A stretch of DNA of 58,462 nt, taken from the NCBI GenBank assembly GCA_043806935.1, contig JAZDGP010000003.1:1-58462 (forward strand), in the 5' to 3' direction. Positions 15,321-35,236 of the stretch are shown here, one piece after another (the first letter of the stretch is position 1; each line of letters begins with the position of its first letter). The DNA is from a bacterium (GTDB lineage Bacteria > Patescibacteriota > Patescibacteriia > JAZDGP01). The translations under genes were made by a program, and so were the position numbers. The notes under the pieces were generated by a model. That model was not told the origin of the DNA and made no database searches. It worked only from the letters and a program-made list of their open reading frames with translations.

Positions 15321-15325
15321 AAATA

Positions 15326-19081: not shown

Positions 19082-19115
19082 GAAAAAGCAAACCACCCCG
19101 ACTTGGGGTGGTTTG
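19082..19115 (-). terminator. Rho-independent terminator after the GY-repeat protein gene
   Basis: 11-bp stem caaaccacccc (19089-19099) / ggggtggtttg (19105-19115). The minus strand continues ctttttcc. Confidence 0.7.
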
Positions 19116-19135
19116 TCTTCTTACTATTAAAGATA

Positions 19136-20374
19136 TTAACGGTTAATGTATAGCTGGTAATCCTTGCTGTTCTTCCAAGCTGACCATGGTAATTTAGGAT
19201 GTACAGTCTTGCCTCCCCATTTTAATGCTTTAACAACTGCTTCAACCGGATAACCGCCATAGATGTAGGAATTGACTACAGTGCTCCAATTCTTTGCTGA
19301 AATCTTTATCTTTCCCTTTCCATACACCTTCTCTAATGCTGTTTTTAGTTCAACTGCCATCTGTTTCTCTTGAGCCAAGGACTTTAGTCTAGCTTTGCCA
19401 AAAGCGAATGTTCCTGATTTAAGGCTCAAACCGCCTGCTGGAGTGCTGATTCTTGCTTGATCAAATGCTGGATCATAGATAGCTAATGGGCTGGAAGTAA
19501 TGGCTGTTTCTCCTACAGCTGGAGTACCGCTCTGCCCACCGCTTATGTAAGCCCCACCGCCACCACCACTACTTGAGCCAGAAGATCCTGCTCTGGAAGC
19601 AGCAAATGTTGATGCGCTGGTCGTTGTAAATGAACAGATACTGCTAGAAACCGTACAGGTTGTCAATAATACAGTGGAACTATCAACTGCGGAATACTTA
19701 TAAACATTAAGTGTTTGGCCATTAAAGGAACTACCTACCGTCATAGTGAGAGTAATTGGCTGGCTAAACGTCAATCCTATATTTGATAGGCCATACTCTA
19801 AAGCCTCACCAATCTGATTCTGGCCGCTTGGCAGAGTAGTCAAGGTACCGCTAGCTGTTTGCCGTAATTGATTTAAGTTCATTGTTCCGCCTCCTGTCCT
19901 GGTAATCGTGGTACCTGACGGAATTGCCACTGAATAAGTTCCTGTGCTAGTGGTAGCCGAGAAAGTAATCGGGATATTGAATGTGGCGGCAGTGGCGGCA
20001 TCAACTGATCCAGTGATGCTTGCTAATCCAGCAGCAAAAATTGAAGCGATGGTGTCCCCAGTCGAATCTGTTACCGTAACTGTGGTAGTCGTATAACCAC
20101 CATCACCAGAAGTCGTTAACAGGAAACCATAACCGTAACCATAGCCATATTCTCCATCAAATGAGGCGGTATCCATCCGGTAGCTTAAAGCGGCAACTCC
20201 ATAACCATAGCCGTAACCATAACCATAGCCATAACCCCACCCCTCGTCACCTGTATTTCTGCTAAATTCAGCCAATACCTTACCACCGCCCATAAATAGA
20301 GAAACGATCAGCAATAATGAAACGTAAGCAAAGTAACCTTTTTCTTGAATGAACCCATTTAATGAACTTCCCAT
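19136..20374 (-). CDS. Secreted or anchored protein with Gly-Tyr repeats, a Thr/Ser-rich core and a conserved C-terminal module
   Basis: N-terminal hydrophobic segment, GWGYGYGYGYGYGYGV and EYGYGYGYGF repeats, a T/S-rich middle, the hinge GGGGGAYISGGQ, and C-terminal VVNSYIYGGYPVEAVVKALKWGGKTVHP. Confidence 0.7.
   Translation of the reverse strand: MGSSLNGFIQEKGYFAYVSLLLIVSLFMGGGKVLAEFSRNTGDEGWGYGYGYGYGYGYGVAALSYRMDTASFDGEYGYGYGYGFLLTTSGDGGYTTTTVTVTDSTGDTIASIFAAGLASITGSVDAATAATFNIPITFSATTSTGTYSVAIPSGTTITRTGGGTMNLNQLRQTASGTLTTLPSGQNQIGEALEYGLSNIGLTFSQPITLTMTVGSSFNGQTLNVYKYSAVDSSTVLLTTCTVSSSICSFTTTSASTFAASRAGSSGSSSGGGGGAYISGGQSGTPAVGETAITSSPLAIYDPAFDQARISTPAGGLSLKSGTFAFGKARLKSLAQEKQMAVELKTALEKVYGKGKIKISAKNWSTVVNSYIYGGYPVEAVVKALKWGGKTVHPKLPWSAWKNSKDYQLYINR
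20127..20240 (-). repeat. Two blocks of imperfect hexanucleotide (GGN TAY) repeats encoding (GY)n
   Basis: Plus-strand ccataaccgtaaccatagccatat (20127-20149) and ccataaccatagccgtaaccataaccatagccataacc (20199-20238). Confidence 0.9.
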
Positions 20375-20391
20375 GATGTTAAGTTTTTTAG

Positions 20392-20643
20392 TTAGTTTTT
20401 ATTATGTTCATTATAAACTATATTGTTCTGTTCTACAACAAGATGAGTTATCCACAGGTCAAAAATAATCATTAAAAACAATGTTCGTGCTAAAACCACT
20501 GTGAATTTAAAGAAAATAGCATCTAATCCCCAATATTTTACAGCTAATGCAAAAAATAAAGTCGCAACACCCCAAACTAAGATTGTCAATCTATTGTAAA
20601 ATCCAAATCCGTGATACCAATCAGATGTTTGTTTATATTCCAT
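20392..20643 (-). CDS. Small membrane protein (83 aa)
   Basis: Two to three hydrophobic helices. It overlaps the upstream gene by 11 nt and is part of the overlapping operon chain. Confidence 0.5.
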   Translation of the reverse strand: MEYKQTSDWYHGFGFYNRLTILVWGVATLFFALAVKYWGLDAIFFKFTVVLARTLFLMIIFDLWITHLVVEQNNIVYNEHNKN

Positions 20644-21493
20644 AACTGTCTTTATTTATTTGTTTAGTTAGCCGCAAATCTTCATCATGCATTGACCATA
20701 AGACATGGGTAATCCGCACAACTATTAAGTAGAACAACACTCTAGCCACTGTCTCAGCTGCTTTCAATTCTCCAACAGCCACAAGAACAGCCAGTGAAAT
20801 CAGCGCCAGAATCAACAATCGTGCCACCAACCGATCAAACCAAGGATAAACACGGTAACCAATAATAGCGCCTATGACCAACGTCTGCCACACAGATCGC
20901 GACCACCAGTACATTAGCAGTATCACTAACCAGACAAGACCATACCGCCGGCCAATCGGCAAAAACCATCGAATGAAGCGCGTAGCGCCTCTTTTTACCT
21001 GAACAATAATTATTTTAATAATCTCCGCTGATAATCTTCCAATCCTCCATACAAAACCAACAAAAATTATAATCGTGATTACTGTTCGTACTAAGAACCG
21101 TTTTAAAACAGACACAAAATCAAACCTAACCGCCTTAATCATTCTATAAAACCATTCACGCAACATAGACCATTTTGGCCATGCAAAACGCGGATTTATT
21201 AACTGTCTTAACAATTCACCTTTATTATTTCTTAACCATTCTATCCATCCACCGGCATACAGTTTAAAACCATGGCAAATCAGGCCTACTGTTTGCAAAA
21301 AACGAACCAAGCCAAATTGGCAATCACGGCCATAGCGCGCCAACAGCCACAGCCCAAACACAACTGCCACGTCCAACCACAGCCAACGGACAAGCCGGGA
21401 CTCGTCTAAAACAAAAGTGGACCCCAATACCAACAGCACCACGGTTCCCAAAACCATCGTGCCTGCCTGTAGTGAAGAATCCTTCTTATCCAT
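20633..21493 (-). CDS. Polytopic membrane protein (286 aa), unknown family
   Basis: Multiple Trp/Arg-rich TM helices. It overlaps the upstream GT4 gene by 8 nt. Confidence 0.55.
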   Translation of the reverse strand: MDKKDSSLQAGTMVLGTVVLLVLGSTFVLDESRLVRWLWLDVAVVFGLWLLARYGRDCQFGLVRFLQTVGLICHGFKLYAGGWIEWLRNNKGELLRQLINPRFAWPKWSMLREWFYRMIKAVRFDFVSVLKRFLVRTVITIIIFVGFVWRIGRLSAEIIKIIIVQVKRGATRFIRWFLPIGRRYGLVWLVILLMYWWSRSVWQTLVIGAIIGYRVYPWFDRLVARLLILALISLAVLVAVGELKAAETVARVLFYLIVVRITHVLWSMHDEDLRLTKQINKDSYGI

Positions 21494-22736
21494 TTGCTAA
21501 ACGAGCTGGTAAATAATCATACTTGCGCATATCCTGTTTTGGATCATCCAAGAACGCTGTAATTACATTATGCTCATATTCCGTAACTAACGGATTGTCA
21601 AACAGCTCAGCCAACTGACGATATTTATTTTTCTGTTCCTCTGTTGGTTCGTGTCTTAATGCGTCCACCACTTGCGCAACTAATAGATTAGCATCTCCTG
21701 GTTCACTATATTTTAAATAATCACCGTAAAGAGCATGCACTCCCCTGCTTTTGGTCGCTACAACAGGCTTCCGTTGGGAAAGGTAAATGATTATTTTTCC
21801 GCATTCAGCGGTGTCAGCGGTTGGAGTAAGCAAAAAAGGAGCGACACCGACATCAGCTAAATTAATATACTTGTATAAATCTTCATATGGCAACCACCCA
21901 ATAAACGTAAACCGTTCCATTAGTCCAATCTTCTGTATCCTTTGTTTCAACGACTCTACGTAATGTGGCAATCCCTTGCCAATCACCACGAACTGGACGT
22001 TCGGTATCTCTCCTACGATCCGAGGAGAAGCGTCAATCAAAGTCTCCAGACCGTCAATCATTGAGATGTCTCCAGCGTACATCACCACCTTCTTGCCTTC
22101 CAAACCGTATTGCTCTAACAATTTCTGGTCCTTCATCTCTGACACTGGAAACCTATTAATATAAATCCCATTAGGAATGGTAACACACTGTTCCGCACTC
22201 ACTCCAAGCCCAGCCATCAAATCCCGCTGAACTGGAGTATCAACGAACAGTAAATCCACTCTCCGCAATCCGATCCTTTCCAAAAACTTAATGATTGGAC
22301 AGACAAACCAAGCGAATGGATAACCAAAACTCTTATACAAATCATAATAAATGTCGTAAATGGAAGAAATAAAAGGAATATGCCGCTTCCATGGTATCAA
22401 TTGCAGCAACAAACCCATGTGCGTTTGTTCTCCACGGATATATCCTGGATTTTCCCTGCTTACATATCGCCATAACGCCACATACAGATTAGCCAAACCC
22501 AACAACCGCTGAAACAAAGAATATTGCTTTTTAAATCTATACTTGTATGTGAAGTAGTGAATCTTTGTTTCTATCTCCGCTGGGAAATGATCCTTGTTTT
22601 GAGGAGCGACAATATCAATCCGGTCGTAATGCTGGTAAAGGTGGCTGATGTACACCTGACAGCGATACGGACGATCATACGACGGGACAGCTGTCTCGTT
22701 AAACAACAGGATGTGACGGCGTTGAGTACTTTCCAT
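21486..22736 (-). CDS. Glycosyltransferase, GT4-like (GT-B fold)
   Basis: Length and the C-terminal half (VVMYAGDIS...VQFVVIGKG...ADVGVAPF...GKIIIYLSQRKPVVAT) fit the GT1/GT4 retaining family. Confidence 0.7.
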   Translation of the reverse strand: MESTQRRHILLFNETAVPSYDRPYRCQVYISHLYQHYDRIDIVAPQNKDHFPAEIETKIHYFTYKYRFKKQYSLFQRLLGLANLYVALWRYVSRENPGYIRGEQTHMGLLLQLIPWKRHIPFISSIYDIYYDLYKSFGYPFAWFVCPIIKFLERIGLRRVDLLFVDTPVQRDLMAGLGVSAEQCVTIPNGIYINRFPVSEMKDQKLLEQYGLEGKKVVMYAGDISMIDGLETLIDASPRIVGEIPNVQFVVIGKGLPHYVESLKQRIQKIGLMERFTFIGWLPYEDLYKYINLADVGVAPFLLTPTADTAECGKIIIYLSQRKPVVATKSRGVHALYGDYLKYSEPGDANLLVAQVVDALRHEPTEEQKNKYRQLAELFDNPLVTEYEHNVITAFLDDPKQDMRKYDYLPARLANG

Positions 22737-25605
22737 ACAAATATTCTCTTAATGATACTAGCAGTATAACGGCCAAATAATAAAAGAGGAAATAATAAGT
22801 GAAACGCCGCCACCAACTGTGAATCTCTACAGGCGCGAACACCAAACGCGAAACCTCTTCAGTTGTCTCCCCGTCTACCAAAAAATAATTATTGCCAAAA
22901 TCCATCAAGACTGGTAACTGGTCTGTCTGTCCTTTCAACCGCCAATTAGAGTCAGGCGGTTCCGCTAACTTCAACAAGCCTTGTTTTTGATCAGTTCCAC
23001 CTAATTTCAATTCAACAATGTTATCCGGCATTAGAATCCTGTAATCAATCTTTGACTCCGACACTGGCGCTACTTTTTCTTTTTTTAAACTAGCCAAAAA
23101 TTCATCCACAATTTTTTGTTTCTGCTGGTATAGTCCTTCAGGGACAACAGCAAAATCAGTTATTGCGTTAAAACCGTTTGAATTGATCAGCTCCAGTTTT
23201 TGCCCTGCAATATTCTTTGCGTCATACGAGCCAAGGTACGTCCAATAAAAATCGCTCTGCTTGCTCTCTGTTGAAATCAGCACACCTTCGCCAAACACAC
23301 CGCCACGTAACGTAATCGCTTGTTTGCCAGGCTGCCGGAACGTCTTAAGGTACACCCTTGCCCTCCCGTTAACCGTTGGCATTTCAGAAACCATAAATTG
23401 CTGAATGGCTTTTTTCTCATCTGTTCTTAGGAATCTGCCGCTTGCAAACCCAGGATCAAAACCGTAAAAACGCATATAATAAGGAATCCAGAGATGGGAA
23501 GAAAGAAAATCCTCTAACCATTGCGACACCAGTCCGTCTGTTGTTCGACGTGGACGTATCATATAAGGCCGCATTGTGTCTAGCGCTAAAATAAAATCAT
23601 CATTACCTTTGCCGTTAGCATAATAAACAGCGTTGAAATAACTTTTAAAAGAAGTTATCATGTGTTCAGGGATAGTAAAATATTCTGGGAACAACACAGT
23701 GCCTGTAGTCGGAATCACTTTACGAAATTCACTGCCAAACGATCCAAAATACACGCCAACCTTAGAAAGTTTATTAACATAGCCGTCTGCCTCCTTATTT
23801 TCATACACAGTCAGCTGTCCAAACCGAGCTACTGGCTGGAAACGGTCGTTATTGGCAAAAAACAGAACATGTTGGTCATATCTCTGTCTGTCCACCTCAT
23901 TGCCGTCAATTACAATGAACCTAATATTTAAATTACGCAGCAAGTAAGCTGTCTCTGCGGGATCAGCATGGCCAGTTTCAATTTGTGCTTTAAGATAGTG
24001 ATACAGAAAACCATGCGTGGCGGTCATGGGAATAAAAACCTTTCCTTCAGCGATCCAGACGCTTGGGTGTGGCAATAATTGGTTATCATCTCCTCCAGCA
24101 GGGCTCCATTGGGCATCAAGATAATACGAGTAATCCCACGACGGCAGCCAGAGCACCCTTGCTCCTTGATCAATTTCTGATCTGCGTCCATTCATGTAAG
24201 CGACCGCTGTTTCATATTCCTGAGGAATACGCCTACCATTTATTAGATTAAAAAATTCTTTATTAGCTAAAATCGTAGTGGAGACCAATGGCAATAAAAT
24301 TAACACCGCCATGATGGTAGATCGTTTTGTCACAAAATTATAAAATCTGCTAGTAGCAACACGAACATCAGATCTCCTAGCCAGACGTTGAACGACGTAT
24401 CCATAGCAAACCATGGCGCTAAATGTAATAATCGACATGTAAAAATAAGAATCTTTCACTACCCATCCTGCTTTGGCGAACACTGCATTATTAGCCAAAG
24501 CTGTTTCCAATCCAAACTCGTGGACTGAAGAAACAAAAAGCAACCCAATGGTAAATAAAATAGCGAAGCCAAAAATTCTTTTCCAGCTATCAGCCCGTGT
24601 CTTTAATGCCATAACCACTATTACAGCTCCTACACCCAAAGCCACAAACACATAAAGCAACGGGTAAGAACTTTCAAACAACTGGTCAAAATTATAATAA
24701 CTAGTTCCAAGTAAATTATTAAGAAAACTTGCCCGTTTGGCCAAAAATCGCAACACGCTAGCAGTGGTAGCCGTCTCCCATCCGGCGCGCAATTCCACTT
24801 CTTGCCCGAACATCGCCACTAACAAATAAACAGCTAACGGAAGATAAACCACAACCATTGCTAACACGTATACGAAAAATCTCCACCATACAGCCAGAAA
24901 CTTCTTATACCTAACCCATAGCCAATACAAAAGCAGCCAACCGATCACCAAAGTGTTAATCAAAATGTAATGTGGTGAAATATTGGAAAAAAACAGCACT
25001 ACCGCCAAAAGAATAGAATAAAGCAATTTCCTCCAAATACGGCTTTGGTTAATCATCTGGTAAACGCAAATAACTACCCATGGTAGCAGCGCGTACCCAA
25101 CCAAGATTGACCAATGTACGATCTTAAGAAAAAAATAGAATGAAAAAGCGTACCCTACTCCACCAGCAATCGCCCCCCAATAAGGATAATCGCCATTTTC
25201 CTCTTTTGATAATATCTTAACCAGCCGGTAAATCCCGTATGAACTCAAAACAATCAACGCAAAGAAAAAAACAAGCTGGGCTATCCGCGTTGACGGAAAC
25301 AGCTTCAACAAGTTAATGACGGGCATCAACGATATATAATAGTAATTATTGTTGCCAAATTGGTAGTTAAATAAACTATCTGTATTATTACCAAGCAACG
25401 CGACATTGCTATGCATCCGAAAATCCTCAAACTCCAACAGCCCTCCGCCAAACACCAAATTCTGGAAAAAATAAAGATACCCGGCGATGTCTAAAAGCAA
25501 CAACGCCACGACTGGAGCCCACGGCCGCGACCAGAATGGACGAATATAATTAATTAATGCTCGTATCATGTTTATTCTTCTTGGCGATAATAAAACAGCT
25601 GTCAT
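22699..25605 (-). CDS. Large GT-C-like (YfhO/AftD-like architecture) integral membrane glycosyltransferase candidate
   Basis: About 430 aa of tightly packed TM helices, a roughly 500-aa soluble domain and a final C-terminal TM helix (YYFLFYYLAVILLVSL). There is an alternative start at 25569 (MIRALINYIRPF). It shares ALLPW-type motifs with CDS 29434-31152. Confidence 0.55.
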   Translation of the reverse strand: MTAVLLSPRRINMIRALINYIRPFWSRPWAPVVALLLLDIAGYLYFFQNLVFGGGLLEFEDFRMHSNVALLGNNTDSLFNYQFGNNNYYYISLMPVINLLKLFPSTRIAQLVFFFALIVLSSYGIYRLVKILSKEENGDYPYWGAIAGGVGYAFSFYFFLKIVHWSILVGYALLPWVVICVYQMINQSRIWRKLLYSILLAVVLFFSNISPHYILINTLVIGWLLLYWLWVRYKKFLAVWWRFFVYVLAMVVVYLPLAVYLLVAMFGQEVELRAGWETATTASVLRFLAKRASFLNNLLGTSYYNFDQLFESSYPLLYVFVALGVGAVIVVMALKTRADSWKRIFGFAILFTIGLLFVSSVHEFGLETALANNAVFAKAGWVVKDSYFYMSIITFSAMVCYGYVVQRLARRSDVRVATSRFYNFVTKRSTIMAVLILLPLVSTTILANKEFFNLINGRRIPQEYETAVAYMNGRRSEIDQGARVLWLPSWDYSYYLDAQWSPAGGDDNQLLPHPSVWIAEGKVFIPMTATHGFLYHYLKAQIETGHADPAETAYLLRNLNIRFIVIDGNEVDRQRYDQHVLFFANNDRFQPVARFGQLTVYENKEADGYVNKLSKVGVYFGSFGSEFRKVIPTTGTVLFPEYFTIPEHMITSFKSYFNAVYYANGKGNDDFILALDTMRPYMIRPRRTTDGLVSQWLEDFLSSHLWIPYYMRFYGFDPGFASGRFLRTDEKKAIQQFMVSEMPTVNGRARVYLKTFRQPGKQAITLRGGVFGEGVLISTESKQSDFYWTYLGSYDAKNIAGQKLELINSNGFNAITDFAVVPEGLYQQKQKIVDEFLASLKKEKVAPVSESKIDYRILMPDNIVELKLGGTDQKQGLLKLAEPPDSNWRLKGQTDQLPVLMDFGNNYFLVDGETTEEVSRLVFAPVEIHSWWRRFTYYFLFYYLAVILLVSLREYLYGKYSTPSHPVV

Positions 25606-26491
25606 GGCCGCGAGTGATCATCTCCACCACAGTCAACAAAGCAATACACATATTACTTAAAAGAAAATTTAACTTCAAGCCGTACCTTCCGGACAAATAC
25701 AAATAAACGCTGCTGGACAAACTGCCGGAATTATACAACTTACTTTTCACAATCTGGTAACCTGCTTTTTCCAACAAGAAACATAAAGACCGCTGGTTAA
25801 AAAGGTACAAATGCCTAGGAGCGTCTAAAGACGACCAATGCTCATGAAACACCCGTAACAGCCAAGAATCGCTGGACGGCACGGCTAATGCCAACACACC
25901 GCCATCTTTTAACACTCTATTGATCCCCCTCAAATACCGTAATGGATCATCCAGGTGTTCAAAGACATGCCAAGCCCTAACAATATCAAAAGATCCTGTT
26001 TCCAGCTCCTCTAACGAACAAAACATCTTCAAGCTATTAGTTTTCCCTCTTGCTACAGCCAGCTCGGAAAACTCCACTCCGCATGCTTCAACTTTGTCTG
26101 AACCAACAATTCTAAGCACTGTTCCGGCTCCACATCCAAAATCCAAAAACTGAACATTTCCTCTAGGATAACCACCGATTGTGCTCCAACCGCTGACGCC
26201 GTCTTGAAACCCGATATTTAACCAAGACAATAATCTGTAGATTAACAACCGAACCTTATAAAAAACGTTTAACGACCCGGAATAGGAGTAATAATCATCC
26301 TGGTAAAAAGCGGAGATTGCTTCAGGTGTTGGTAATGGTTCAATAACGCCAACACCGCACTGCTGACAGCGCGTGTACTGATAACTCCCACCTTGCTTTG
26401 ACCTGTAATCAGGAGCAACTATCCAATCAATCCACTGTCTACCACCGCAAATCCTGCAAGCAGATGTCTCCCGCGCAACCTCACTTATCAT
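25550..26491 (-). CDS. Class I SAM-dependent methyltransferase with an N-terminal zinc ribbon
   Basis: CRICGG...CQQCG pairs followed by the SAM motif FLDFGCGAGTVL. Confidence 0.75.
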   Translation of the reverse strand: MISEVARETSACRICGGRQWIDWIVAPDYRSKQGGSYQYTRCQQCGVGVIEPLPTPEAISAFYQDDYYSYSGSLNVFYKVRLLIYRLLSWLNIGFQDGVSGWSTIGGYPRGNVQFLDFGCGAGTVLRIVGSDKVEACGVEFSELAVARGKTNSLKMFCSLEELETGSFDIVRAWHVFEHLDDPLRYLRGINRVLKDGGVLALAVPSSDSWLLRVFHEHWSSLDAPRHLYLFNQRSLCFLLEKAGYQIVKSKLYNSGSLSSSVYLYLSGRYGLKLNFLLSNMCIALLTVVEMITRGHDSCFIIAKKNKHDTSIN

Positions 26492-27209
26492 TTTGAAACA
26501 CCATAATCATCCCCTCCGCCATTCTCCGCCAATAGCGTGATACCAACCTATTGATCAAAAACTTTTCAAAATGGCAGTAGCTGCTACGTTCAATAATTTT
26601 GAATCCATAGTGGGCAGCCATTTCTGTTAAAGCATCCTCGGTAAATATCCTCAAATGGCCAACCGCTAAACTGGAACTGATGCCAAATAAACGATAAAAC
26701 TCTTTGCGTCCAAACATACGTTCCCGAAAAGACACTTCCATTGGAAACGGCAACCAGCCAAACAAAACAAAAAGCCGATTGTACCAAGAGACAAGGTTAG
26801 GAGTGGTAATAATTAACGATCCTCCTGGCTTCAAAACTCTCCGGCATTCAAGAAAAAAATTATCCACGTCGTACAAATGTTCAATTACTTCTCCAGCAAG
26901 CACTATATTAAATCGGTTATCATCATAACTCAGCCGATTATTAATATCCTCCACTCTAAATTCGTAGGAATATTGGTTCTTAGCTAATTGAATCGCTTCA
27001 TTAGAAATGTCCATCCCTTCAAACAGCACTCCTGGAAAATGTTGAACGTAGTGCTGAAGCAATTCACCACTTCCGCAACCAATCTCCAACACTCTCTGGC
27101 CAGAATGGCTATACCGATTTAATAAGCTTTTAATTTTTTTAACACGGTCGACATCATATTCCTCCAACGGTTTGCGGTATCCTTCTTTGTAAAAATCAGC
27201 GAGAGCCAT
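26481..27209 (-). CDS. Class I SAM-dependent methyltransferase
   Basis: SAM motif VLEIGCGSGELL plus the post-I acidic residue, then VLKPGGSLIITTPN. Confidence 0.8.
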   Translation of the reverse strand: MALADFYKEGYRKPLEEYDVDRVKKIKSLLNRYSHSGQRVLEIGCGSGELLQHYVQHFPGVLFEGMDISNEAIQLAKNQYSYEFRVEDINNRLSYDDNRFNIVLAGEVIEHLYDVDNFFLECRRVLKPGGSLIITTPNLVSWYNRLFVLFGWLPFPMEVSFRERMFGRKEFYRLFGISSSLAVGHLRIFTEDALTEMAAHYGFKIIERSSYCHFEKFLINRLVSRYWRRMAEGMIMVFQNDK

Positions 27210-28410
27210 ATAATTGTTTATATAATTGATACGTCTTTTCTGTAACTTTTGGCATTGATCGATATTCAGCCAATGCTTTCATTTTACTTTGAGCAGATGC
27301 TATTTCTCCTTTGAAATACTGGCCTAGTTTTGTTGCTAAGCTATCAGCGGTTTGTCGGAACACGATCTCCGGTATCTGAATATCCTCAGCTAAAGCGTCA
27401 CTCACCAAGAAATCAGCTCCATACGCCAAGGAAAAGGCCAGCGGACCGCTGGTACCCATATACACTGAATAAGGTATAACACACACATCACTGGCTCCAT
27501 AATACACCGATATTTCTTCTTCTCCTACAAACCCAACCCACCGATATTGGCCATTAGGAATAACAGCAACCGCGCGTTCCTGCAACGTATTATAAAACGA
27601 CTGATAGGGTTTGTCATTCTTTAAATTAGGATTCATACCGCCAGCTATGATCAAAAAAGCTTTGGGGTTGTTAACAGTATATTTGGCAAATCCATCAATT
27701 AAGAGCGGCAAACCTTTATAACCTGAGATAAAGCCAAAAAATAAACAGATATGGCCGTCTAACGGCAATTTCAGTTGCTGTCGCGCTTCCTCTCGCGGAG
27801 CCATTTTAATTGTCTGCTCAACGTAGTGATTGATAACCTCCACTCGCTCCGCAGGCACTCCGTAATCCTCCACCATTGTCCTGCGGAAACTGGTTTCGTG
27901 CACCACCACCTTTTGCGATAAAACAGTTACTAATTTATAAATGACGTAAAAAGCTGACTTAATCATCCAAATTGGCAATCTGGTGTTATTACTGCGTACA
28001 AACTCGTCGTCAATAAAATTCAAAGACACAACCCCATGAACCGTTGTAATAACCGGTATCTTTTTCAATCTCAAATAAACGTAAACTAAAAACAAAAATA
28101 CCGAACTGATCTGCCCTCCATACAATCTTAATTCATGTTGGATATGGACCAAATCTGGACGTAATTGACGCAACTGGTTTATCAGCTGAAAAGGAAATTT
28201 CCAGCCTTTTTGCCAGCAATGGCGCACTTCAACATTATCTTTCAGACGATATGTTTCTTCTCCACGGTACATATTCGCCAAAAAGTAAACTTGGTCATTT
28301 GATTGGAAAGGAACATTCGATATCATGTTCTTGGAATACAAATCTGGGCCTCCAGTGCGTGGAATATTTTGATCAGGTGGAAAAATGCAGGAAATAAACA
28401 CTAATTTCAT
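27196..28410 (-). CDS. Glycosyltransferase, GT4-like
   Basis: GT-B-type layout with the start MKLVFISCIFPPD and C-terminal FLIIAGG...ASDVCVIPY. Confidence 0.7.
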   Translation of the reverse strand: MKLVFISCIFPPDQNIPRTGGPDLYSKNMISNVPFQSNDQVYFLANMYRGEETYRLKDNVEVRHCWQKGWKFPFQLINQLRQLRPDLVHIQHELRLYGGQISSVFLFLVYVYLRLKKIPVITTVHGVVSLNFIDDEFVRSNNTRLPIWMIKSAFYVIYKLVTVLSQKVVVHETSFRRTMVEDYGVPAERVEVINHYVEQTIKMAPREEARQQLKLPLDGHICLFFGFISGYKGLPLLIDGFAKYTVNNPKAFLIIAGGMNPNLKNDKPYQSFYNTLQERAVAVIPNGQYRWVGFVGEEEISVYYGASDVCVIPYSVYMGTSGPLAFSLAYGADFLVSDALAEDIQIPEIVFRQTADSLATKLGQYFKGEIASAQSKMKALAEYRSMPKVTEKTYQLYKQLYGSR

Positions 28411-29315
28411 AATCGTTCCAACATCTTTAACGTATGCTCATACACGGTATCCACTAGCACTCTGTCAATGCATTGCGGTTGATGATAACAATTTGGTTTA
28501 TATGAACAGAAACAAGGAGCTTCTTTATCATATAATTTTACCATTCGCCCATAATCATGAATTTCCATTGGAGAGGTCGGCCCAAAAATCGCCACTACTT
28601 TTTTTTGTAAAGCCAACGCTAAATGCATTGCCAAAGTGTCTCCGCAGACAATCACCCGGCTATCATTAATATCGCTTAGATATTCCAACAACCCGGCCCG
28701 TTTAGTAAAAACAACAACCGGTATGCCACGTTCTTTCAATTTATCATACAACTGGTCATAACCGGACCATCTTTTTGTCGGCCACCGCTCTCCTCCAGCC
28801 CATCTCTCTACCCCAACCGCATACTTGGTTTCCCTGCTCAAATTAACTCCCAACTGGTACTCCTGATCAGTAAACGGTAAACTAAACATTTCGTACAAAT
28901 ATTCTTGGAACGTTCTATTGTTTTGTTTTTTTAACTCATCAGCTTTCTCTTTGCCATGTCTTGAAATCAAACTCATATCAAACCATCCTTTACCATGATC
29001 GGTATATTTCACTTCATTGGTAATTTCATCAACATACACCCCTACCAATGAATGCCGTTTAACTTTCTGCACCAATTGTAAAACTGGTAATTCTTCATCA
29101 AGAGATATTACTAAATCAAAATACTGACCTAAAAGCCGTTGGTGGTCATAATCATCACCAAACCGGTAAACACATTTAAGATAGGGATTAAGGCATAACA
29201 ATTCATAACTGCTTGGGGAAGTCAGCCAATGAGCATCACCTTTAATAGCCGGCAATAAAGCCGTTGTCCTTACTACATCGCCCAATGCTCCTAATTTTAC
29301 AATCAACACTTTCAT
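28407..29315 (-). CDS. Glycosyltransferase family 9 (heptosyltransferase-like)
   Basis: MKVLIVKLGALGDVVRTTALLPAIK N-terminus and GDTLAMHLALALQKKVVAIFGPTSP, matching the GT9 DSGPMHLAAALGxPxVALFGPTxP block. Confidence 0.75.
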   Translation of the reverse strand: MKVLIVKLGALGDVVRTTALLPAIKGDAHWLTSPSSYELLCLNPYLKCVYRFGDDYDHQRLLGQYFDLVISLDEELPVLQLVQKVKRHSLVGVYVDEITNEVKYTDHGKGWFDMSLISRHGKEKADELKKQNNRTFQEYLYEMFSLPFTDQEYQLGVNLSRETKYAVGVERWAGGERWPTKRWSGYDQLYDKLKERGIPVVVFTKRAGLLEYLSDINDSRVIVCGDTLAMHLALALQKKVVAIFGPTSPMEIHDYGRMVKLYDKEAPCFCSYKPNCYHQPQCIDRVLVDTVYEHTLKMLERL

Positions 29316-29395
29316 TGCTAAATATGCAATTTAATTATTATTATATTCCCTAGGTTACAATAAAAAACAAATAAAAACAAGAAAAAAAATTCTGG

Positions 29396-29423
29396 TTGAC
29401 TATATTTCTTTTTCCACTACAAT
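29396..29423 (+). promoter_or_regulatory. Sigma-70-type promoter for CDS 29434-31152
   Basis: TTGACT (29396-29401), a 16-nt spacer, then TACAAT (29418-29423). There are only 10 nt between the -10 and the ATG, so the leader is very short or absent. Confidence 0.5.
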
Positions 29424-29433
29424 ATCCATACTT

Positions 29434-31152
29434 ATGAATCCATTCAAAAAGCTAGTAGAACACTTTCAAACCCATCCTGCAAATTATCTTTCTATTTTAC
29501 CAGCTCTGTTTCTCCTAAGCGGTTTCTGGTTTATCCCTGGTTATATACAACTGCTAGATCTAACCGTGGGTCCTGCTCTTGCTTCTAAGGCACAAGGATT
29601 CACAGGCTTTGATTATCTGCTCCACTGGCTGGCAATGGCTGGTGTTTTAGAAACAGGCCAAAAAGTCATACTCGTTGTTGTGCTCTGGCTTGCCACCCTA
29701 GGCTGCTACCGTCTCCTTGATAAATACCCAAGCTGGACTAAAATCAGCGGTTCCCTGCTCTACATCATCAATCCATTCGTCTATTACAGGATGATCACAG
29801 GGCAGATCAATGTGATAATCATTCTAGCTCTCCTACCATGGGCATTACGTTACATTATTGCTCTGTTGGAGACATCAAACACAAAAAATTGTTTGCGTGT
29901 CGGAGTCATCACTGCCGCCATGGGGCTATTCGCTCCACATGGGCTGCTTATACTAGCAATTATCTACGCGATCGCTTTTATTGCCTATTTATGGAAAACG
30001 CCAACATGGCAAAAAAAATTATTCTCCCTTCCTTACCTTTTAATCATATTAGCGGCTGTCTTAATGGTAAACAGCTTTTGGATCATTCCCGCGATCCAAG
30101 GAAAGGGATACGTGGGGGAATATTTGACCGATATCTCCCACCCAATCCAAAACACTATCTACCAAACGATTACGGACTCAAACTGGGGATTGGGCTACAA
30201 CGTACTGGGACTATACGGATTCTGGGCTGAAAACAACTTTTTCAACTTAAGCAATAAATCGTTCGCTCCTTGGTGGCCATATCTATTGCCCATCATACTA
30301 TTCGTTATTATTCTTGGAGCACTATCCACATGGAAACAGTACCGTGAATTTTCCTCCTCGCGTAAAACCTTAATCGTAGTATTAAGTTCTGCCGCTCTCC
30401 TCGGCTTCTTTTTGTCCTTAGGAATAGCCTCGCCGCTCACCAAATCCCCTATGGAATGGCTTTACAGGCACTTTGTCCCGCTCCAAGGTTTTAGAGACTC
30501 TCATAAATTTTTAGTTATCACCATTATTGGCTACGGATATTTCTACGCTGCCGGATTGGAATATCTGGCAAAAAAAACAGAAATTATCAACAGATGGAAA
30601 TTATCAGGGGCGGTATTGGGAATCGGTATCCTTATACCGTTCCTATACACTCCAGGAGTCTTTGGAAACTTCCACGGCGTGGTCCAGCCAGCGGTATTCC
30701 CGCAAAGCTGGGCAACAGTGCAAACATTTCTTAATAATGACCAAACGGATTACCGCGTGCTTGTATTTCCATGGCATCAATACCAAAGCTACGCTTTTCT
30801 CAACAACAAAAAAGTAGCCAACTTAGCTACCGTCTTCTTTAACAATAATCTTATCGTAGGCGACAATGTGGAATTTGGGGTGTACTCCACTTCCAGACGT
30901 AAAGAATCAAAGATAACTGACTTGTTTCTAGTTCTCCCTAACGACAAGAAAGAAAAAATGGCAACCACCATGGCTTATAATCTCAACGTAAAGTACATAA
31001 TCCTTACCAAAGAAGTCGACTGGAATACCTATCTCTGGCTTGACAAAGCGGATGGTTTGGAAAAAGTGTTTGACTCTAAAGAAATTTCTCTCTACGAAAA
31101 CAAAAGATGGAAGACCAATAACAGCCGGGTAATTAATCAACAGCCTGATTAA
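29434..31152 (+). CDS. GT-C-like integral membrane protein (572 aa), smaller paralog of CDS 22699-25605
   Basis: About 400 aa of TM helices plus a roughly 170-aa C-terminal soluble domain. Its 3' end overlaps the convergent FkbM gene by 20 bp. Confidence 0.5.
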   Translation: MNPFKKLVEHFQTHPANYLSILPALFLLSGFWFIPGYIQLLDLTVGPALASKAQGFTGFDYLLHWLAMAGVLETGQKVILVVVLWLATLGCYRLLDKYPSWTKISGSLLYIINPFVYYRMITGQINVIIILALLPWALRYIIALLETSNTKNCLRVGVITAAMGLFAPHGLLILAIIYAIAFIAYLWKTPTWQKKLFSLPYLLIILAAVLMVNSFWIIPAIQGKGYVGEYLTDISHPIQNTIYQTITDSNWGLGYNVLGLYGFWAENNFFNLSNKSFAPWWPYLLPIILFVIILGALSTWKQYREFSSSRKTLIVVLSSAALLGFFLSLGIASPLTKSPMEWLYRHFVPLQGFRDSHKFLVITIIGYGYFYAAGLEYLAKKTEIINRWKLSGAVLGIGILIPFLYTPGVFGNFHGVVQPAVFPQSWATVQTFLNNDQTDYRVLVFPWHQYQSYAFLNNKKVANLATVFFNNNLIVGDNVEFGVYSTSRRKESKITDLFLVLPNDKKEKMATTMAYNLNVKYIILTKEVDWNTYLWLDKADGLEKVFDSKEISLYENKRWKTNNSRVINQQPD

Positions 31153-31960
31153 CAAACAATAGATCAACAGCTTCTATAATTTCAGTTTCTTTGAAAATAC
31201 GGCCGACTGAAATTAGTTTTAATTGAGGAGCTATTTGTTGAAGCAGACCCATGACTGACAAAAAGTTGCCATCTGATGGCCGGTCGACACTTATCTCTAA
31301 AATCAGGTATCGTGACTTTGCAATGATCTCTGAACTTGCAACAAAAACATCGTATTCAGTACCTTCTACGTCAATTTTGAGCAAATCAATATGTGGTTCG
31401 TTGTTAATTTCTGATATTTGAGACAGGCGACGACCGCTGACATTGTAGGCAACCGCGCCTGATGAGTCGTTTCTTGGATGGAGAAAAACGCTAGCAACCA
31501 AGCTAGTTTCTTTTGGTAAATACATTTCAAAAGACTGTTTGGTGGCTACGGCGCAATTAAAAATATCTTTTTTGGCGTTTAATTGTAATAGAGAGAACGA
31601 CTTTGACATTGGTTCTATGCTATATACTGTCTTGGCATGCAGATAAATTTTGGCGAATAAATTGAATTGCCCGATGTTAGCGCCGATATCAACAATAACA
31701 CTATTAGGAGCAATGCACTTGTGTAAAAAAGAATTATCAACAAAGACACTCTGGAGAAAAGCCAATCCAAAAATTTCATCATAATAGTAATTAACGCCAA
31801 ATATTTTTACATTGGTAATTCCAGGTTGTATGCCAAAGAGAACGTTTTTGCAAAGCAAAAAATATTTCTTACAAATGAAAGACAATTTTTGCCATAGCGG
31901 CAAAGAAAGTTTTAAAAAGCTGTAATCGAGTCGGAGAGAACGAATAATAAATTTCAACAT
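31133..31960 (-). CDS. FkbM-family methyltransferase
   Basis: VIVDIGANIGQFNLFA and LLKIDVEGTEYDVF blocks typical of the FkbM (Methyltransf_21) family. Confidence 0.8.
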   Translation of the reverse strand: MLKFIIRSLRLDYSFLKLSLPLWQKLSFICKKYFLLCKNVLFGIQPGITNVKIFGVNYYYDEIFGLAFLQSVFVDNSFLHKCIAPNSVIVDIGANIGQFNLFAKIYLHAKTVYSIEPMSKSFSLLQLNAKKDIFNCAVATKQSFEMYLPKETSLVASVFLHPRNDSSGAVAYNVSGRRLSQISEINNEPHIDLLKIDVEGTEYDVFVASSEIIAKSRYLILEISVDRPSDGNFLSVMGLLQQIAPQLKLISVGRIFKETEIIEAVDLLFVNQAVD

Positions 31961-32019
31961 GATCGCATTAATTATGCTTATTCTTTCGTTAAAATGATAA
32001 ATGGTCTTTCAGCTAATAA

Positions 32020-33003
32020 CTATCCTAAATCATCCTTCTTGGAAAAACAAGATTGGTTATCAAAATGGTGGCTTTGTTTACGCACTACAAACAAAGGACG
32101 ATTCATCACTTCCCGATGGATGTTTCCGATATAAAGAGCTATCAGACCAAGACAGATAAGCACGATACCAATTAGAAACAGATTAAAAACAGCGAGAAAA
32201 GCAGTGCCAGTAATCTTTAAATTTAACATATCATCCAGAATAAACCGCTCTATGAGCATAAATAAACCCATAAACCCGGAAATAACAGTGATTATAATCC
32301 CTAAATAACCAGCTAACCGCAATGGAAATAAACTATGGCTTACAAAACTAGAGCTCGCTAATCTCACCAGCTTAACAAAGCTATATCCAGCTTCTCCATC
32401 TAACCGTTTGCAAGCTTTAAAACGTACAAAAGCTTGAGGGAACCCCAACCAATCTAATAATCCCCTAGTCATACGCTCACGTTCAGTAAATCTGTTAAAC
32501 ACATTAACTACCGTACGGTCCAAAAGACGATAATCAGTTCCTCTAGGAATCATATGGGTCTCTCCAATCGCTTCCATAATCTTATAAAACAGCCATGACC
32601 CTGTTCGTTTAATATATCCCTCCCCCTGGTTCTTTTCTCTCACTCCCACTACCACCTTATGGCCTTCTTCCCACTTCCTGATGAATTCAGTTAGTAGTTC
32701 CACAGGATGTTGGAGATCAGCGTCAATCATCACCACAGCGTCTCCCTGAGCGTACTGCAATCCAGCGGTCGTAGCGATCTCTTTGCTAAAATTCCTAGAG
32801 AATTGTAGATATTTCACTTTATCATCCTGTTTAGCCAATTGTTCTATCATTATTAAGCTGTTATCAACACTGCCGTCATCCACAAAAATAATCTCGTGGT
32901 CGTAATTTAACAACTGTCCTAACACCTGTTTTAACTGTTGGTAAAGCGCTGGAAGGTTTACTTCCTCGTTATAAACCGGCACGATAATCGAAATCAATTT
33001 CAT
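32020..33003 (-). CDS. GT2 polyprenyl-phosphate sugar synthase (GtrB/CsbB/ArnC-like)
   Basis: MKLISIIVPVYNEE, DDGSVD and DADLQHP motifs plus two C-terminal TM helices. Confidence 0.8.
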   Translation of the reverse strand: MKLISIIVPVYNEEVNLPALYQQLKQVLGQLLNYDHEIIFVDDGSVDNSLIMIEQLAKQDDKVKYLQFSRNFSKEIATTAGLQYAQGDAVVMIDADLQHPVELLTEFIRKWEEGHKVVVGVREKNQGEGYIKRTGSWLFYKIMEAIGETHMIPRGTDYRLLDRTVVNVFNRFTERERMTRGLLDWLGFPQAFVRFKACKRLDGEAGYSFVKLVRLASSSFVSHSLFPLRLAGYLGIIITVISGFMGLFMLIERFILDDMLNLKITGTAFLAVFNLFLIGIVLICLGLIALYIGNIHREVMNRPLFVVRKQSHHFDNQSCFSKKDDLG

Positions 33004-33013
33004 GCTCTCTACC

Positions 33014-34306
33014 TTAATCTAAATCAACTTTTTGTTCAACCCCTGTTCGTTGCCAGAGTGTACGCATCCCTATGATCAACAACAGCACGGTGATTATAGA
33101 TGTTATTGTCAACATAGAAACAAAATCAGCAATGGTTGTTGGATGATACGCAGATGGAACAATAAACAAAAATAACTGCAGAACAGCAATGGTCGCAATT
33201 GCTGCAACTCCCCACCAGACGTGACGAGCTACATACAGCGAAGCGGTAACAGTCGCTACTGCCAACAAACCCATAAAAAAAGCTACTTCAGTCATCACGC
33301 TGGCTGCTAAAGAAAATTTGTCGCCATATAAATAATGCAATAATTGCTGTCCAAACAACCATGTGCCAACCACGCCTAATAACACCAATGCCCCGACTGC
33401 CAGTAATCCACGCCTAGCGATCCAACGTTCTTCCGCCGGTCCGGCAACGCTAAACATTGGATAAAGCACCACACCGAACGCCGCGCTGATGTACAACACG
33501 GCTTTGCCAAACAAAGAAATAACGGCATAAGCGCCAACATCAGACGGTATAGCTAACCTAGCCAGAAAAACATCATTGCTCGTCAACCATGTGATTGCCA
33601 CTAATGAACATGTTGCTAAACCGGAATGTTTCCACAAACGCGGACATTTGACTGAAACGTCTTCTGCCTTAGGTAAATCATTAGATACTATCTGCCAAAG
33701 CAACGGCAGTATTATAATATTCTCAATCAGCAAAGCAAAAAACAGTTCTTGCGTTCCTAATCCCTTTAGTCCAACTACGATATAAGCGATCACTACCTTT
33801 ACTAGCGCATCGCCAACGCCAACCATCGCATATAATCTCCAACGTCCCAACCCTTGGGCAATTGCGCGCAAAATCGCCACCCAGCCAGCTGTGACTACAA
33901 CAAACGCCATAATGGTAAAAACAATTGGACCGCCCAATATAAACCAATGCTGCGCAACCAATGAAACGGCAATAACTGTTGCCACGATTGCCAATCCAGT
34001 CTGGAGTGAAACGATTTTTAAAGCGTTTAAAAAAGAACGTAATTTAACAGGATTATTTTTTTTATAGTCAGCGGCAAAATGAGTAGCTGTTATGCTCAAT
34101 CCAGCTGGCAAAACCAACAAGGTAGAATAGATGGCCCAGAGCGTTTCAAAATCCCCAAACTCGCCAACCGCCATATATTTAGCAAGCACTAAATGCATGG
34201 CGTACGCTGCCACTCCGCTCATCACCACTGCCGCTAACGGCCAATGGACATTAGACAACCAACCCCAAGAAGCCTTAAATGAACTCAACCGTACTTGAAA
34301 AGACAT
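33014..34306 (-). CDS. Polysaccharide/oligosaccharide flippase-like (MOP/Wzx-type) membrane protein
   Basis: About 12 TM helices across 430 aa, within the glycan locus. Start set at the ATG at 34306 (MSFQVRLSS). Confidence 0.55.
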   Translation of the reverse strand: MSFQVRLSSFKASWGWLSNVHWPLAAVVMSGVAAYAMHLVLAKYMAVGEFGDFETLWAIYSTLLVLPAGLSITATHFAADYKKNNPVKLRSFLNALKIVSLQTGLAIVATVIAVSLVAQHWFILGGPIVFTIMAFVVVTAGWVAILRAIAQGLGRWRLYAMVGVGDALVKVVIAYIVVGLKGLGTQELFFALLIENIIILPLLWQIVSNDLPKAEDVSVKCPRLWKHSGLATCSLVAITWLTSNDVFLARLAIPSDVGAYAVISLFGKAVLYISAAFGVVLYPMFSVAGPAEERWIARRGLLAVGALVLLGVVGTWLFGQQLLHYLYGDKFSLAASVMTEVAFFMGLLAVATVTASLYVARHVWWGVAAIATIAVLQLFLFIVPSAYHPTTIADFVSMLTITSIITVLLLIIGMRTLWQRTGVEQKVDLD

Positions 34307-34342
34307 GAACAAAGTATAACTGAAATTATAATAAAAACACAC

Positions 34343-34370
34343 TTGTCTTTCCTAAGAATTCCGCTATACT
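34343..34370 (+). promoter_or_regulatory. Sigma-70-type promoter for tRNA-Asp
   Basis: TTGTCT (34343-34348), a 16-nt spacer, then TATACT (34365-34370), 12 nt before the tRNA 5' end. The geometry matches the ssrA promoter. Confidence 0.5.
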
Positions 34371-34382
34371 GATTCCGTCCTT

Positions 34383-34459
34383 GGACCGGTAGTTCAGTTG
34401 GTTAGAATGCTCCCCTGTCACGGGAGAGGTCGCGGGTTCGAATCCCGTCCGGTCCGCCA
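34383..34459 (+). tRNA. tRNA-Asp (anticodon GUC), CCA encoded
   Basis: Cloverleaf GGACCGG / GTTC-AGTTGGTTA-GAAT / CTCCC-CTGTCAC-GGGAG / GCGGG-TTCGAAT-CCCGT / CCGGTCC-G-CCA. Confidence 0.95.
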
Positions 34460-34754
34460 GTTAAAATCTTGCAAACCAGAAAAAATTGTCTCGCTCGGTA
34501 GTCAATTTGTATTGTTTTTAGGAAGAAAACGAAAATAATTTATCAATAAGGACAAAAGAAGCAGTTTAATACTACAGCTATTGACGTGTTAAATAAACTA
34601 TGTTATTATTTAAATACAATATACACTTAAATCATACCTTGACATAAGAGAGTGCAGAAAAATGCAGACGGCTTCAGAATAATTGGCTAATCCTAGCCAT
34701 AAATTCTCTTGAATCCTACTATTTTTCTACAGTCTCAAGTAAAGGAGGTAACAA

Positions 34755-35183: not shown

Positions 35184-35200
35184 CTTAATCATTTCGAGTT

Positions 35201-35236
35201 TGCCAGTTCTCCATAAAACTGGCATTTTTCTTTTTT
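35201..35236 (+). terminator. Rho-independent terminator
   Basis: Stem tgccagtt (35201-35208) / aactggca (35217-35224) followed by tttttctttttt. Confidence 0.7.

Follow-up and report, generated by a model that had tools for sequence, protein, structure and literature searches.

The three-component logic of the Gtr pathways has been described together with a variant in which a flippase of the MOP superfamily serves the addition of a pentofuranose (PMC11127046). In Citrobacter youngae, a polyprenyl-P-ribose synthase acts with a MATE-family flippase and a GT136 glycosyltransferase (GT) of the GT-C type, the carbohydrate-binding module (CBM) of which binds the acceptor polysaccharide (PMC11127046). 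A second point of reference is the aftD-mmpA-mtrP locus of the Mycobacteriales (bioRxiv 10.64898/2026.07.31.741767; PMC8698533). AftD comprises a GT-C module and three CBMs and ends in a five-helix bundle that binds acyl carrier protein (ACP), its essential residues being K39, D41, E251, K361 and D474 (bioRxiv 10.1101/2019.12.22.885152), and MmpA (Rv0226c) is homologous to its N-terminal membrane module (PMC8698533). Here we describe a glycan locus that a preliminary description placed at positions 20392-34306 of contig JAZDGP010000003.1, which was analysed over a stretch of 58,462 nt (the window).

This is a coherent envelope-glycan locus, the logic of which is already known, and it is very divergent. 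We think the chances somewhat better than even that its product is a methylated glycoconjugate of the cell envelope, made first in the cytoplasm and then outside the membrane. The proposal builds on a fold or family assignment for each of the enzymes, on conserved aspartates in two GT-C proteins, on the operon structure and on the recurrence of the gene content elsewhere.

Two GT-C proteins of the AftD/MmpA branch

The smaller of the two GT-C proteins, of 572 amino acids (aa), is encoded on the plus strand at 29434..31152 and is classed as MmpA-like, or like the AftD N-terminal module, from NCBIfam, an AlphaFold2 (AF2) model and Foldseek. It matches the NCBIfam MmpA model NF053599 over nearly its full length at 121 bits (E 5e-35; cutoff 210), and Pfam PF11847 (GT-C_AftD) at 15.7 bits (E 0.004; cutoff 26). 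The larger, of 968 aa (22699..25605, minus strand), is classed as AftD-like from its AF2 model, Foldseek and hhalign; it has no Pfam match and scores only 25 bits against NF053599. PDB sequence and profile searches with both families return nothing meaningful. By profile and fold comparison the two proteins are homologous to AftD/MmpA but fall outside the family by the curated thresholds, and to each other they are distant paralogues, as judged by hhalign of the 968-aa protein with the 572-aa family (98.8%, E 6e-17, residues 99-605).

Relatives of either protein are few and remote. The closest database relatives of the 572-aa protein (17 proteins) are at most 30% identical to it, and one homologue comes from a metagenome-assembled genome (MAG) of a woesearchaeote (Woesearchaeota). 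An HMMER scan of 1.84 billion representative proteins yields 18 hits to the 968-aa protein including the query itself, the best being 26% identical, so that this enzyme belongs to a very rare family; in a word-index homologue search it retrieves only itself, as does the 430-aa flippase discussed below. In the database the large protein is called as a gene product of 956 aa that starts at M13 (position 25569), which is the probable start of the 968-aa open reading frame (ORF).

Hydropathy finds 8 segments in the 572-aa protein and 10 in the 968-aa protein, and in the AF2 models each has about 11 transmembrane (TM) helices plus an alpha/beta domain. The model of the small protein, built with an alignment of its relatives, has pLDDT 86 and pTM 0.86; its top 23 Foldseek matches in the PDB are all GT-C enzymes, with AftD first (E 3e-8, TM-score 0.62) and STT3, AglB, PglB, DPY19, AftA and ArnT among those that follow. 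The model of the large protein (pLDDT 71, pTM 0.76) combines a membrane part of some 10-11 TM helices with an outer alpha/beta domain and a CBM-like beta-sandwich, and has one TM helix at its C terminus. Its top three Foldseek matches are AftD (6w98, E 2.8e-10), with PglB and AftA next, and the beta-sandwich matches CBM6/CBM35-type modules over about 108 aa. With one clear CBM-like unit and a single C-terminal TM helix, the model does not reproduce the full architecture of AftD. The CBM-like domain, if correctly modelled, points to a glycan acceptor.

The preliminary description had regarded both large membrane proteins as GT-C enzymes of a YfhO-like kind. The fold is borne out by both models, AftD being the top match for each. 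The YfhO assignment is not: no match to YfhO (PF09586) is obtained at E<=0.01 for the 572-aa protein or at E<=10 for the 968-aa protein, so membership of that family is rejected and the AftD/MmpA branch takes its place.

It had been suggested that GT-C identity be tested by looking for a conserved Asp in the first loop outside the membrane, and both families have one. D42 of the small protein, in an LLD motif just after TM1, is kept in all 14 family sequences that cover the region, and D61 of the large protein (EDFR, first outer loop) in 16 of 16. The small family has further invariant residues at N113, P114, R119, H169, R354, K358 and W447-H448; D42 and K358 occupy positions similar to those of AftD D41 and K361, which is a positional analogy and not a residue-level alignment.

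A GtrB-type donor synthase and its neighbouring flippase

The minus-strand gene at 32020..33003 encodes a 327-aa GT2 protein that is, on the strength of its homology, a GtrB-type polyprenyl-phosphate glycosyltransferase, presumably acting on a hexose. It aligns over its full length (residues 4-307) with Synechocystis GtrB (sll0501; PDB 5EKP) at 231 bits (E 1.6e-67), and the IDADLQ motif, which contains the DxD, is identical in the two proteins; the next PDB match is ArnC, at 126 bits. Pfam Glycos_transf_2 is matched at 112.9 bits and TM segments lie at the C-terminal end (225-297). The GtrB/CsbB-like character given to this protein in the preliminary description is thus well founded. The scores against the NCBIfam equivalogs PgfS (227 bits, cutoff 500) and ArnC (144 bits, cutoff 529) fall below threshold, and therefore the sugar specificity of the GT2 is not assignable from orthology to either. 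With a GtrB-type synthase and a flippase encoded in the neighbourhood, the GT-C proteins may use a polyprenyl-phosphate-linked sugar donor.

Directly upstream of the GT2 gene lies the gene for a 430-aa protein with about 10-12 TM segments (33014..34306, minus strand, as in the database gene call). It has no direct match in Pfam, NCBIfam or the PDB, PF01943 and PF13440 included. A metagenome search with the GtrB of the window returns relatives 49% and 54% identical in two loci, L091 and L092 (L-numbers denote distant metagenomic loci throughout), and immediately upstream of each is a gene for a polytopic protein of about 427 aa that matches Pfam Polysacc_synt (PF01943, E 9e-16) and Polysacc_synt_3. 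With these syntenic proteins and a 446-aa counterpart from L003 the 430-aa protein aligns by hhalign over 365 columns (95.9%, E 5e-9). The resulting four-sequence profile matches that of Escherichia coli RfbX and WzxC (81%, E 1e-5), Wzy and WcaJ as controls giving nothing; a two-sequence profile gives no signal with RfbX/WzxC, the link appearing only once the L091 and L092 proteins are added. In L086 too a GtrB (370 bits with the GT2 of the window) is directly preceded by a Polysacc_synt gene recognised by Pfam. Because the gtrB-adjacent counterparts match Polysacc_synt and align with the 430-aa protein, its identity as a divergent Wzx/PST-type (MOP superfamily) flippase, and a conserved neighbour of gtrB, is supported, the assignment being transitive by way of syntenic proteins that Pfam recognises. 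A small flippase of the GtrA type (about 120 aa, 4 TM) has no match in any ORF of the locus. The flippase of the preliminary description thus stands as one of Wzx type and not of GtrA/GtcA type.

Cytoplasmic glycosyltransferases and methyltransferases

The first gene of the long minus-strand operon (28407..29315) encodes a 302-aa GT-B glycosyltransferase of family GT9. Its match to Pfam Glyco_transf_9 (PF01075; 47.5 bits, cutoff 22) is limited to residues 216-264, and so covers the C-terminal nucleotide-sugar-binding part only. Motifs that can be read from the sequence are LGALGDVV near the N terminus and GDTLAMHLALAL...FGPT towards the C terminus, followed by a cysteine cluster (CxCx5Cx6C, residues ~276-291, CFCSYKPNCYHQPQC). 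The classical heptosyltransferases of lipopolysaccharide (LPS) are not known to have such a C-terminal cluster; it could be a metal site, similar to that described for autotransporter heptosyltransferases. The protein has no sequence match in the PDB, and its scores against the NCBIfam heptosyltransferase I, II and III models lie far under the equivalog cutoffs; on this account, and as no other LPS genes are seen in the window, a role in the LPS core is rejected.

Two GT4 enzymes accompany it. One, of 404 aa (27196..28410, minus strand), matches Glyco_transf_4 (44.9 bits) and Glycos_transf_1 (37.6 bits) and is cytoplasmic, having no TM segment; the other, of 416 aa (21486..22736, minus strand), also cytoplasmic, matches Glyco_trans_1_4 (57.8 bits) and Glycos_transf_1 (48.6 bits). 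Between the first GT4 gene and the large GT-C gene lie two genes for class-I S-adenosylmethionine (SAM) methyltransferases. That at 26481..27209 (minus strand, 242 aa) matches Methyltransf_23 (78.2 bits) as well as Methyltransf_11 (70.2 bits) and reaches no NCBIfam equivalog. The one at 25550..26491 (minus strand, 313 aa; Pfam Methyltransf_23, 87.1 bits) carries a couple of CxxC pairs near its N terminus and, towards the C terminus, a single TM-like segment (271-289), and its gene lies directly upstream of the large GT-C gene and overlaps it. A third methyltransferase, of the FkbM family (275 aa), is encoded by the last gene of the convergent operon (31133..31960, minus strand) and exceeds the cutoffs of both Methyltransf_21 (PF05050; 60.2 bits, cutoff 22.7) and TIGR01444 (70.4 bits, cutoff 37.7).

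Pfam and NCBIfam thus confirm the inventory first proposed (one GT9, two GT4, a GT2, two class-I SAM methyltransferases and an FkbM protein), including the count of three methyltransferases, and together with the 5EKP and hhalign matches they bear out a convergent operon of flippase, GT2 and FkbM methyltransferase. None of the soluble enzymes reaches an equivalog-level model, and their substrates therefore cannot be named.

Layout of the locus

The genes are arranged in three transcription units, namely the long minus-strand operon, the single divergent gene for the 572-aa protein, and the flippase-GT2-FkbM operon that converges on it. From 29315 down to 20392, eight minus-strand ORFs overlap one another successively by 4, 14, 11, 56, 38, 8 and 11 nt, as had been observed initially; the overlap of 56 nt applies to the ORFs as listed and shrinks to 20 nt with the shorter gene call for the large GT-C protein. 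The string had been said to run straight into the gene for a protein with a GY repeat (19136-20374), and this gene does begin only 17 nt past the last of the eight, so that the unit is best read as one of nine genes from 29315 to 19136.

A hairpin resembling an intrinsic terminator lies at 19089..19115 (minus strand), with a stem of 11-13 bp including 7 GC pairs followed by the T-run CTTTTTCC, and is the strongest terminator-like site within 19000-35400. Since it sits just after the GY-repeat gene, the transcription unit most likely includes that gene and has its true left border at about 19089, not at 20392; the right end first proposed, 34306, agrees with the gene call for the 430-aa flippase. 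The GTG start listed for the next ORF, of 1256 aa, at 19096 falls within this hairpin, and its true start is probably further downstream.

The divergent intergenic region of 118 nt contains a promoter-like site, TTGACT-16-TACAAT (29396..29423, plus strand), which matches the consensus at 10 of 12 positions. The consensus promoter that had been described here is therefore present, but it is weak evidence of a promoter, because the region is AT-rich and such matches abound in it (59 against an expectation of 40.7). No more than 10 nt separate the end of the -10 element from the ATG at 29434, leaving a leader of about 4 nt or less, and this spacing suggests that the transcript of the 572-aa gene could be leaderless or nearly so; no evident Shine-Dalgarno sequence precedes the gene (29396-29436, plus strand). 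At its other end this gene overlaps the 3' end of the convergent FkbM gene by 20 nt (31133-31152). There is no terminator-like hairpin at this junction, the nearest candidate (31280-31268) lying within the FkbM gene, and the two transcripts would be mutually antisense at 31133-31152.

To the right the locus is bordered by a gene for tRNA-Asp(GTC) (34383..34459, plus strand; ARAGORN and Rfam). The locus (19136-34342) has 41.1% GC against 44.2% in the left flank (left of 13900) and 46.9% in the right flank, and this slightly lower GC content together with the adjoining tRNA gene is compatible with horizontal acquisition.

Candidate acceptors

The GY-repeat gene (19136..20374, minus strand), last in the long operon and followed by the terminator, encodes a 412-aa protein that is secreted or anchored, with an N-terminal hydrophobic segment, Thr/Ser-rich stretches and no Pfam match; Ser and Thr make up 24.3% of its residues and 24 of the 50 in its best 50-aa window, and it is a candidate product or acceptor of the pathway. 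Elsewhere in the window (40981-53688, minus strand) two giant proteins of 2836 aa and 1333 aa have the same Ser/Thr content of about 24%. The first has CarboxypepD_reg, Big_5 and fn3 domains and a signal-like N terminus, the second has no Pfam domain, and both are probably surface proteins.

These proteins raise the question of whether the GtrB-type synthase, the flippase and one or both GT-C enzymes sugar Ser/Thr-rich secreted proteins directly, in a system of protein O-glycosylation. Besides the place of the GY-repeat gene and the composition of the three proteins, this is favoured by PgfS being the best NCBIfam match of the GT2, by the finding that in streptococci a GtrB and a GT-C enzyme glucosylate disordered regions rich in Ser and Thr (PMC12041528; PMC5856776), and by surface-protein or sortase genes that adjoin the related loci L004, L086 and L003. 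However, the PgfS score is far under its cutoff, the GT-C proteins fall outside the protein-acting YfhO, PMT and PglL families and match AftD and MmpA of glycan and glycolipid pathways instead, and the CBM-like domain suggests a carbohydrate acceptor. Moreover, the three cytoplasmic GT-B enzymes would lack a role if single sugars were simply added to protein. We consider O-glycosylation a real possibility, although a doubtful one.

Two further proteins of the long operon are orphans. The first, a polytopic membrane protein of 286 aa with at least 4 hydrophobic segments (20633..21493, minus strand), overlaps its neighbours by 8 and 11 nt, has no Pfam or NCBIfam match even at E<=10, and is unlike the small membrane proteins that occupy comparable places in L002, L004 and L088. 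The second is a putative protein of 83 aa with two TM-like segments (20392..20643, minus strand), for which there is an ORF only and no family match.

Recurrence in distant loci

The collections searched contain no close relative of the locus. Among 185,579 species genomes the best match to the Lgt of the window is 44% identical and comes from a Patescibacteria MAG, where a thioredoxin-like gene adjoins lgt and there is no glycan locus at that place. The gene content nevertheless recurs in distant relatives (L001, L002, L003, L086 and L088), which was the synteny asked for when the locus was first described.

L001, which has the best homologue of the 968-aa protein (975 aa), places it between two methyltransferase genes, next to a glycosyltransferase gene related to reversibly glycosylated polypeptide (RGP) and UDP-arabinopyranose mutase (4309-5451; PF03214); this family match hints that the relative might use a pentose or furanose donor. 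In L002 a GT2, two GT4 and an acetyltransferase gene are followed by a methyltransferase gene overlapping that of a 716-aa protein (99.3% with the 968-aa family) and by a small GT-C gene (556 aa). L003 has a small GT-C gene (573 aa) divergent from that of the 446-aa flippase homologue, along with GT2 genes and fragments of FkbM genes, and also encodes a homologue of the methyltransferase of 313 aa (E 1.3e-22). The order in L086 is Wzx, GtrB, GT4, a GT2-pyruvyltransferase fusion, a methyltransferase, a GT-C-like protein of 1235 aa, a small GT-C of 506 aa and a sortase, the 1235-aa protein being related to the 572-aa protein (phmmer E 5.7e-14). Finally, L088 encodes proteins of 1040 aa (hhalign 92.5% with the 968-aa family) and 265 aa, a small GT-C of 549 aa, and further GT2 and methyltransferase proteins. 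In pairwise BLASTP with the 968-aa protein the large proteins of L086 and L088 give no significant match.

Two gene pairs recur in these comparisons: a methyltransferase directly upstream of the large GT-C (also in L001, L002 and L086), and Wzx directly upstream of GtrB. The GT9 gene and the genes for the orphan membrane proteins of 286 aa and 83 aa are specific to this window among the related loci examined.

These arrangements also bear on whether we are dealing with a single pathway. The GT9, GT4 and methyltransferase proteins might instead form one pathway with the large GT-C, next to a separate Wzx-GtrB-FkbM cassette that serves the small GT-C on another polymer, for example one of teichoic-acid type. 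The division into three transcription units would suit two or three such independent systems, as would the lack of GT9 in any of the related loci examined and the Wzx-GtrB pairs that stand alone on L091 and L092, contigs too short to show their surroundings. We nevertheless find this improbable: L002, L086 and L088 each combine the large and the small GT-C with a methyltransferase, a GT2 and a GT4, and in L086 the Wzx-GtrB pair is co-directional with the methyltransferase and both GT-C genes.

A model for the pathway

We propose that a methylated glycoconjugate of the cell envelope is made in the following way. Inside the cell, the GT9-like and the two GT4 enzymes would use nucleotide sugars to assemble an oligosaccharide linked to or anchored by a lipid, some sugars of which would be methylated by the SAM methyltransferases. 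In parallel, the GtrB-type GT2 would attach a hexose to polyprenyl phosphate on the cytoplasmic side of the membrane. The Wzx/PST-type protein would then flip a lipid-linked sugar outward, most likely the GtrB product and possibly the oligosaccharide; the former is suggested because the Wzx gene is conserved beside gtrB. Outside, the 968-aa and 572-aa GT-C enzymes would use the polyprenyl-P-sugar donor to extend or decorate the acceptor, with the CBM-like domain of the large one holding the glycan. In this scheme we infer the donor sugar, the cargo of the flippase, the order of the steps and an acceptor that is a glycan (polysaccharide or lipoglycan) rather than a bare protein. That the GT-C-like proteins are instead non-catalytic scaffolds or lipid-delivery factors is very improbable, notwithstanding that, among named families, the 572-aa protein matches MmpA best, that MmpA was first proposed to be a 'trehalose lipid delivery protein' in corynebacteria and that the paper naming it saw no catalytic motif and suggested an anchoring role (PMC8698533), as the first-loop Asp is invariant in both families, R119, H169, R354, K358 and H448 are invariant too, a GtrB donor synthase and a flippase are encoded next door, MmpA itself is GT-like by Foldseek in a 2026 preprint (bioRxiv 10.64898/2026.07.31.741767), and no mycolate or trehalose-lipid genes are found among the window ORFs scanned.

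Several observations weigh against the glycoconjugate model. The 58-kb window contains no priming phosphoglycosyltransferase, polymerase, ligase, LCP enzyme or ABC exporter, and neither the locus nor the window has genes for nucleotide-sugar synthesis. All the relatives that show synteny are very distant (identity of 30% at most). Lastly, the model of the 968-aa protein is only moderately confident (pLDDT 71), and the Foldseek matches that underlie the CBM assignment span only some 108 residues.

If the glycoconjugate model is correct, the locus illustrates how an uncultivated bacterium from a deep branch, with its reduced genome, constructs a decorated glycan on its surface, and such glycans likely matter for host attachment and for recognition by phages or the immune system. 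Three features deserve attention. One is the rarity of the 968-aa family. Another is the recurrent pair of a methyltransferase followed by a large GT-C, which suggests that methylation may be coupled to glycosylation at the outer face in a way not yet described. The third is the link of an MmpA-like protein to a GtrB/Wzx donor module; a small MmpA-like gene beside a GtrB synthase and a flippase argues that proteins of the MmpA type are glycosyltransferases and not passive lipid-delivery factors.

Genomic context

The window is chromosomal bacterial DNA, with mltG, iPGM, eno, pgk, argS, infC, nusG, lgt, fba and gap, genes for the ribosomal proteins L1, L11 and L20, two DsbA-like genes and a tmRNA gene. 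The last of these (12282-12662, minus strand) matches Rfam RF00023 over its full length at 100 bits and was not reported by ARAGORN. A DUF5671 gene (7196-7645, minus strand) sits between the L11 and L1 genes, and a gene for an ECF-type sigma factor is followed by one for a DUF5667 protein (53874-55578, minus strand). Both DUF5671 and DUF5667 are common in genomes of the Candidate Phyla Radiation, and fit the best Lgt match, in a Patescibacteria MAG; taken together, these features suggest that the organism is probably one of the Patescibacteria.

Just downstream of the terminator of the glycan operon (13907-19096, minus strand), the gene for the 1256-aa protein, which is CotH kinase-like with a right-handed beta-helix, is followed by VTC-domain and DUF4956 genes; these look like a separate CotH-VTC-DUF4956 module. 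A 198-aa ORF at 8927-9523 (minus strand) has a Cys-rich N terminus (CCCGQHCRGG...C..VC) followed by a hydrophobic segment, and has no Pfam match.

Comparison with known systems

The preliminary description explained the locus by the three-component logic of the Gtr systems, that is GtrA/GtrB/Gtr* of Shigella and Salmonella and CsbB/GtcA/YfhO of teichoic acids. All three parts are indeed present in the form of a GtrB-type GT2, an adjacent flippase gene and GT-C proteins with an Asp in the outer loop. However, a 430-aa Wzx/PST-type protein takes the place of the small GtrA/GtcA flippase, the GT-C proteins are two paralogues outside the Gtr* and YfhO families, and the locus is larger, adding three cytoplasmic GT-B enzymes and three methyltransferases.

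The C. youngae pentofuranose system is similar in that a flippase of the MOP superfamily replaces GtrA and that the GT-C enzyme bears a CBM (PMC11127046). The locus described here differs in having a GtrB-type GT2 in place of a phosphoribosyltransferase, a Wzx/PST flippase in place of one of the MATE family, and GT-C proteins of another family. With streptococcal O-glycosylation (GtrB and PgtC2; PgfS and PgfM1) it shares a GtrB-like GT2, a GT-C and nearby genes for Ser/Thr-rich extracytoplasmic proteins, but PgtC2 belongs to the YfhO family, of which there is no match here, and the locus has many more enzymes.

In the Agl pathway of N-glycosylation in Haloferax volcanii, GT2 and GT4 enzymes act with the methyltransferase AglP, the Dol-P-mannose synthase AglD, the Wzx-like AglR, the Dol-P-Man-dependent AglS and the GT-C oligosaccharyltransferase AglB. 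The likeness extends to cytoplasmic GTs, a sugar methyltransferase, a synthase of the DPM1/GtrB kind, a Wzx-like flippase and outward-facing transferases. In contrast to that pathway, there is no oligosaccharyltransferase of the AglB/STT3 family here, the Foldseek likeness being at the level of the fold only, and the window is bacterial (lgt, tmRNA and bacterial ribosomal protein genes).

In the Mycobacteriales, GT-C enzymes with polyprenyl-P-sugar donors take part in the assembly of arabinan and lipoglycans. It is the aftD-mmpA-mtrP locus of this order that offers the counterpart to both GT-C proteins: a large AftD-like GT-C with a carbohydrate-binding beta-sandwich, a small protein of the MmpA type homologous to the N-terminal TM module of AftD, and, in the same neighbourhood, a SAM methyltransferase and a predicted soluble GT. 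The differences lie in the scores already given (121 against 210 bits for MmpA, 15.7 against 26 bits for GT-C_AftD), in the lack of a TmaT acyltransferase domain in the locus or among the window ORFs scanned, and in the organism, which is not an actinobacterium and has no evident mycolate pathway. The large protein has one C-terminal TM helix where AftD has the five-helix ACP-binding bundle, and one CBM-like unit where AftD has three. It is tempting to go further and to see in the large AftD-like GT-C with its CBM, the small MmpA-like GT-C and the SAM methyltransferase an ancient, scattered module for elaborating glycans or lipoglycans, common to the Mycobacteriales and to deep-branching uncultivated lineages, in which MmpA-type proteins would be GTs dependent on polyprenyl-P-hexose and the organism would make a methylated, lipoglycan-like polymer; this idea is speculative and on the whole unlikely. 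What the comparison does provide, should our assignments hold, is a setting outside the actinobacteria in which to view the MmpA/AftD branch of GT-C enzymes.

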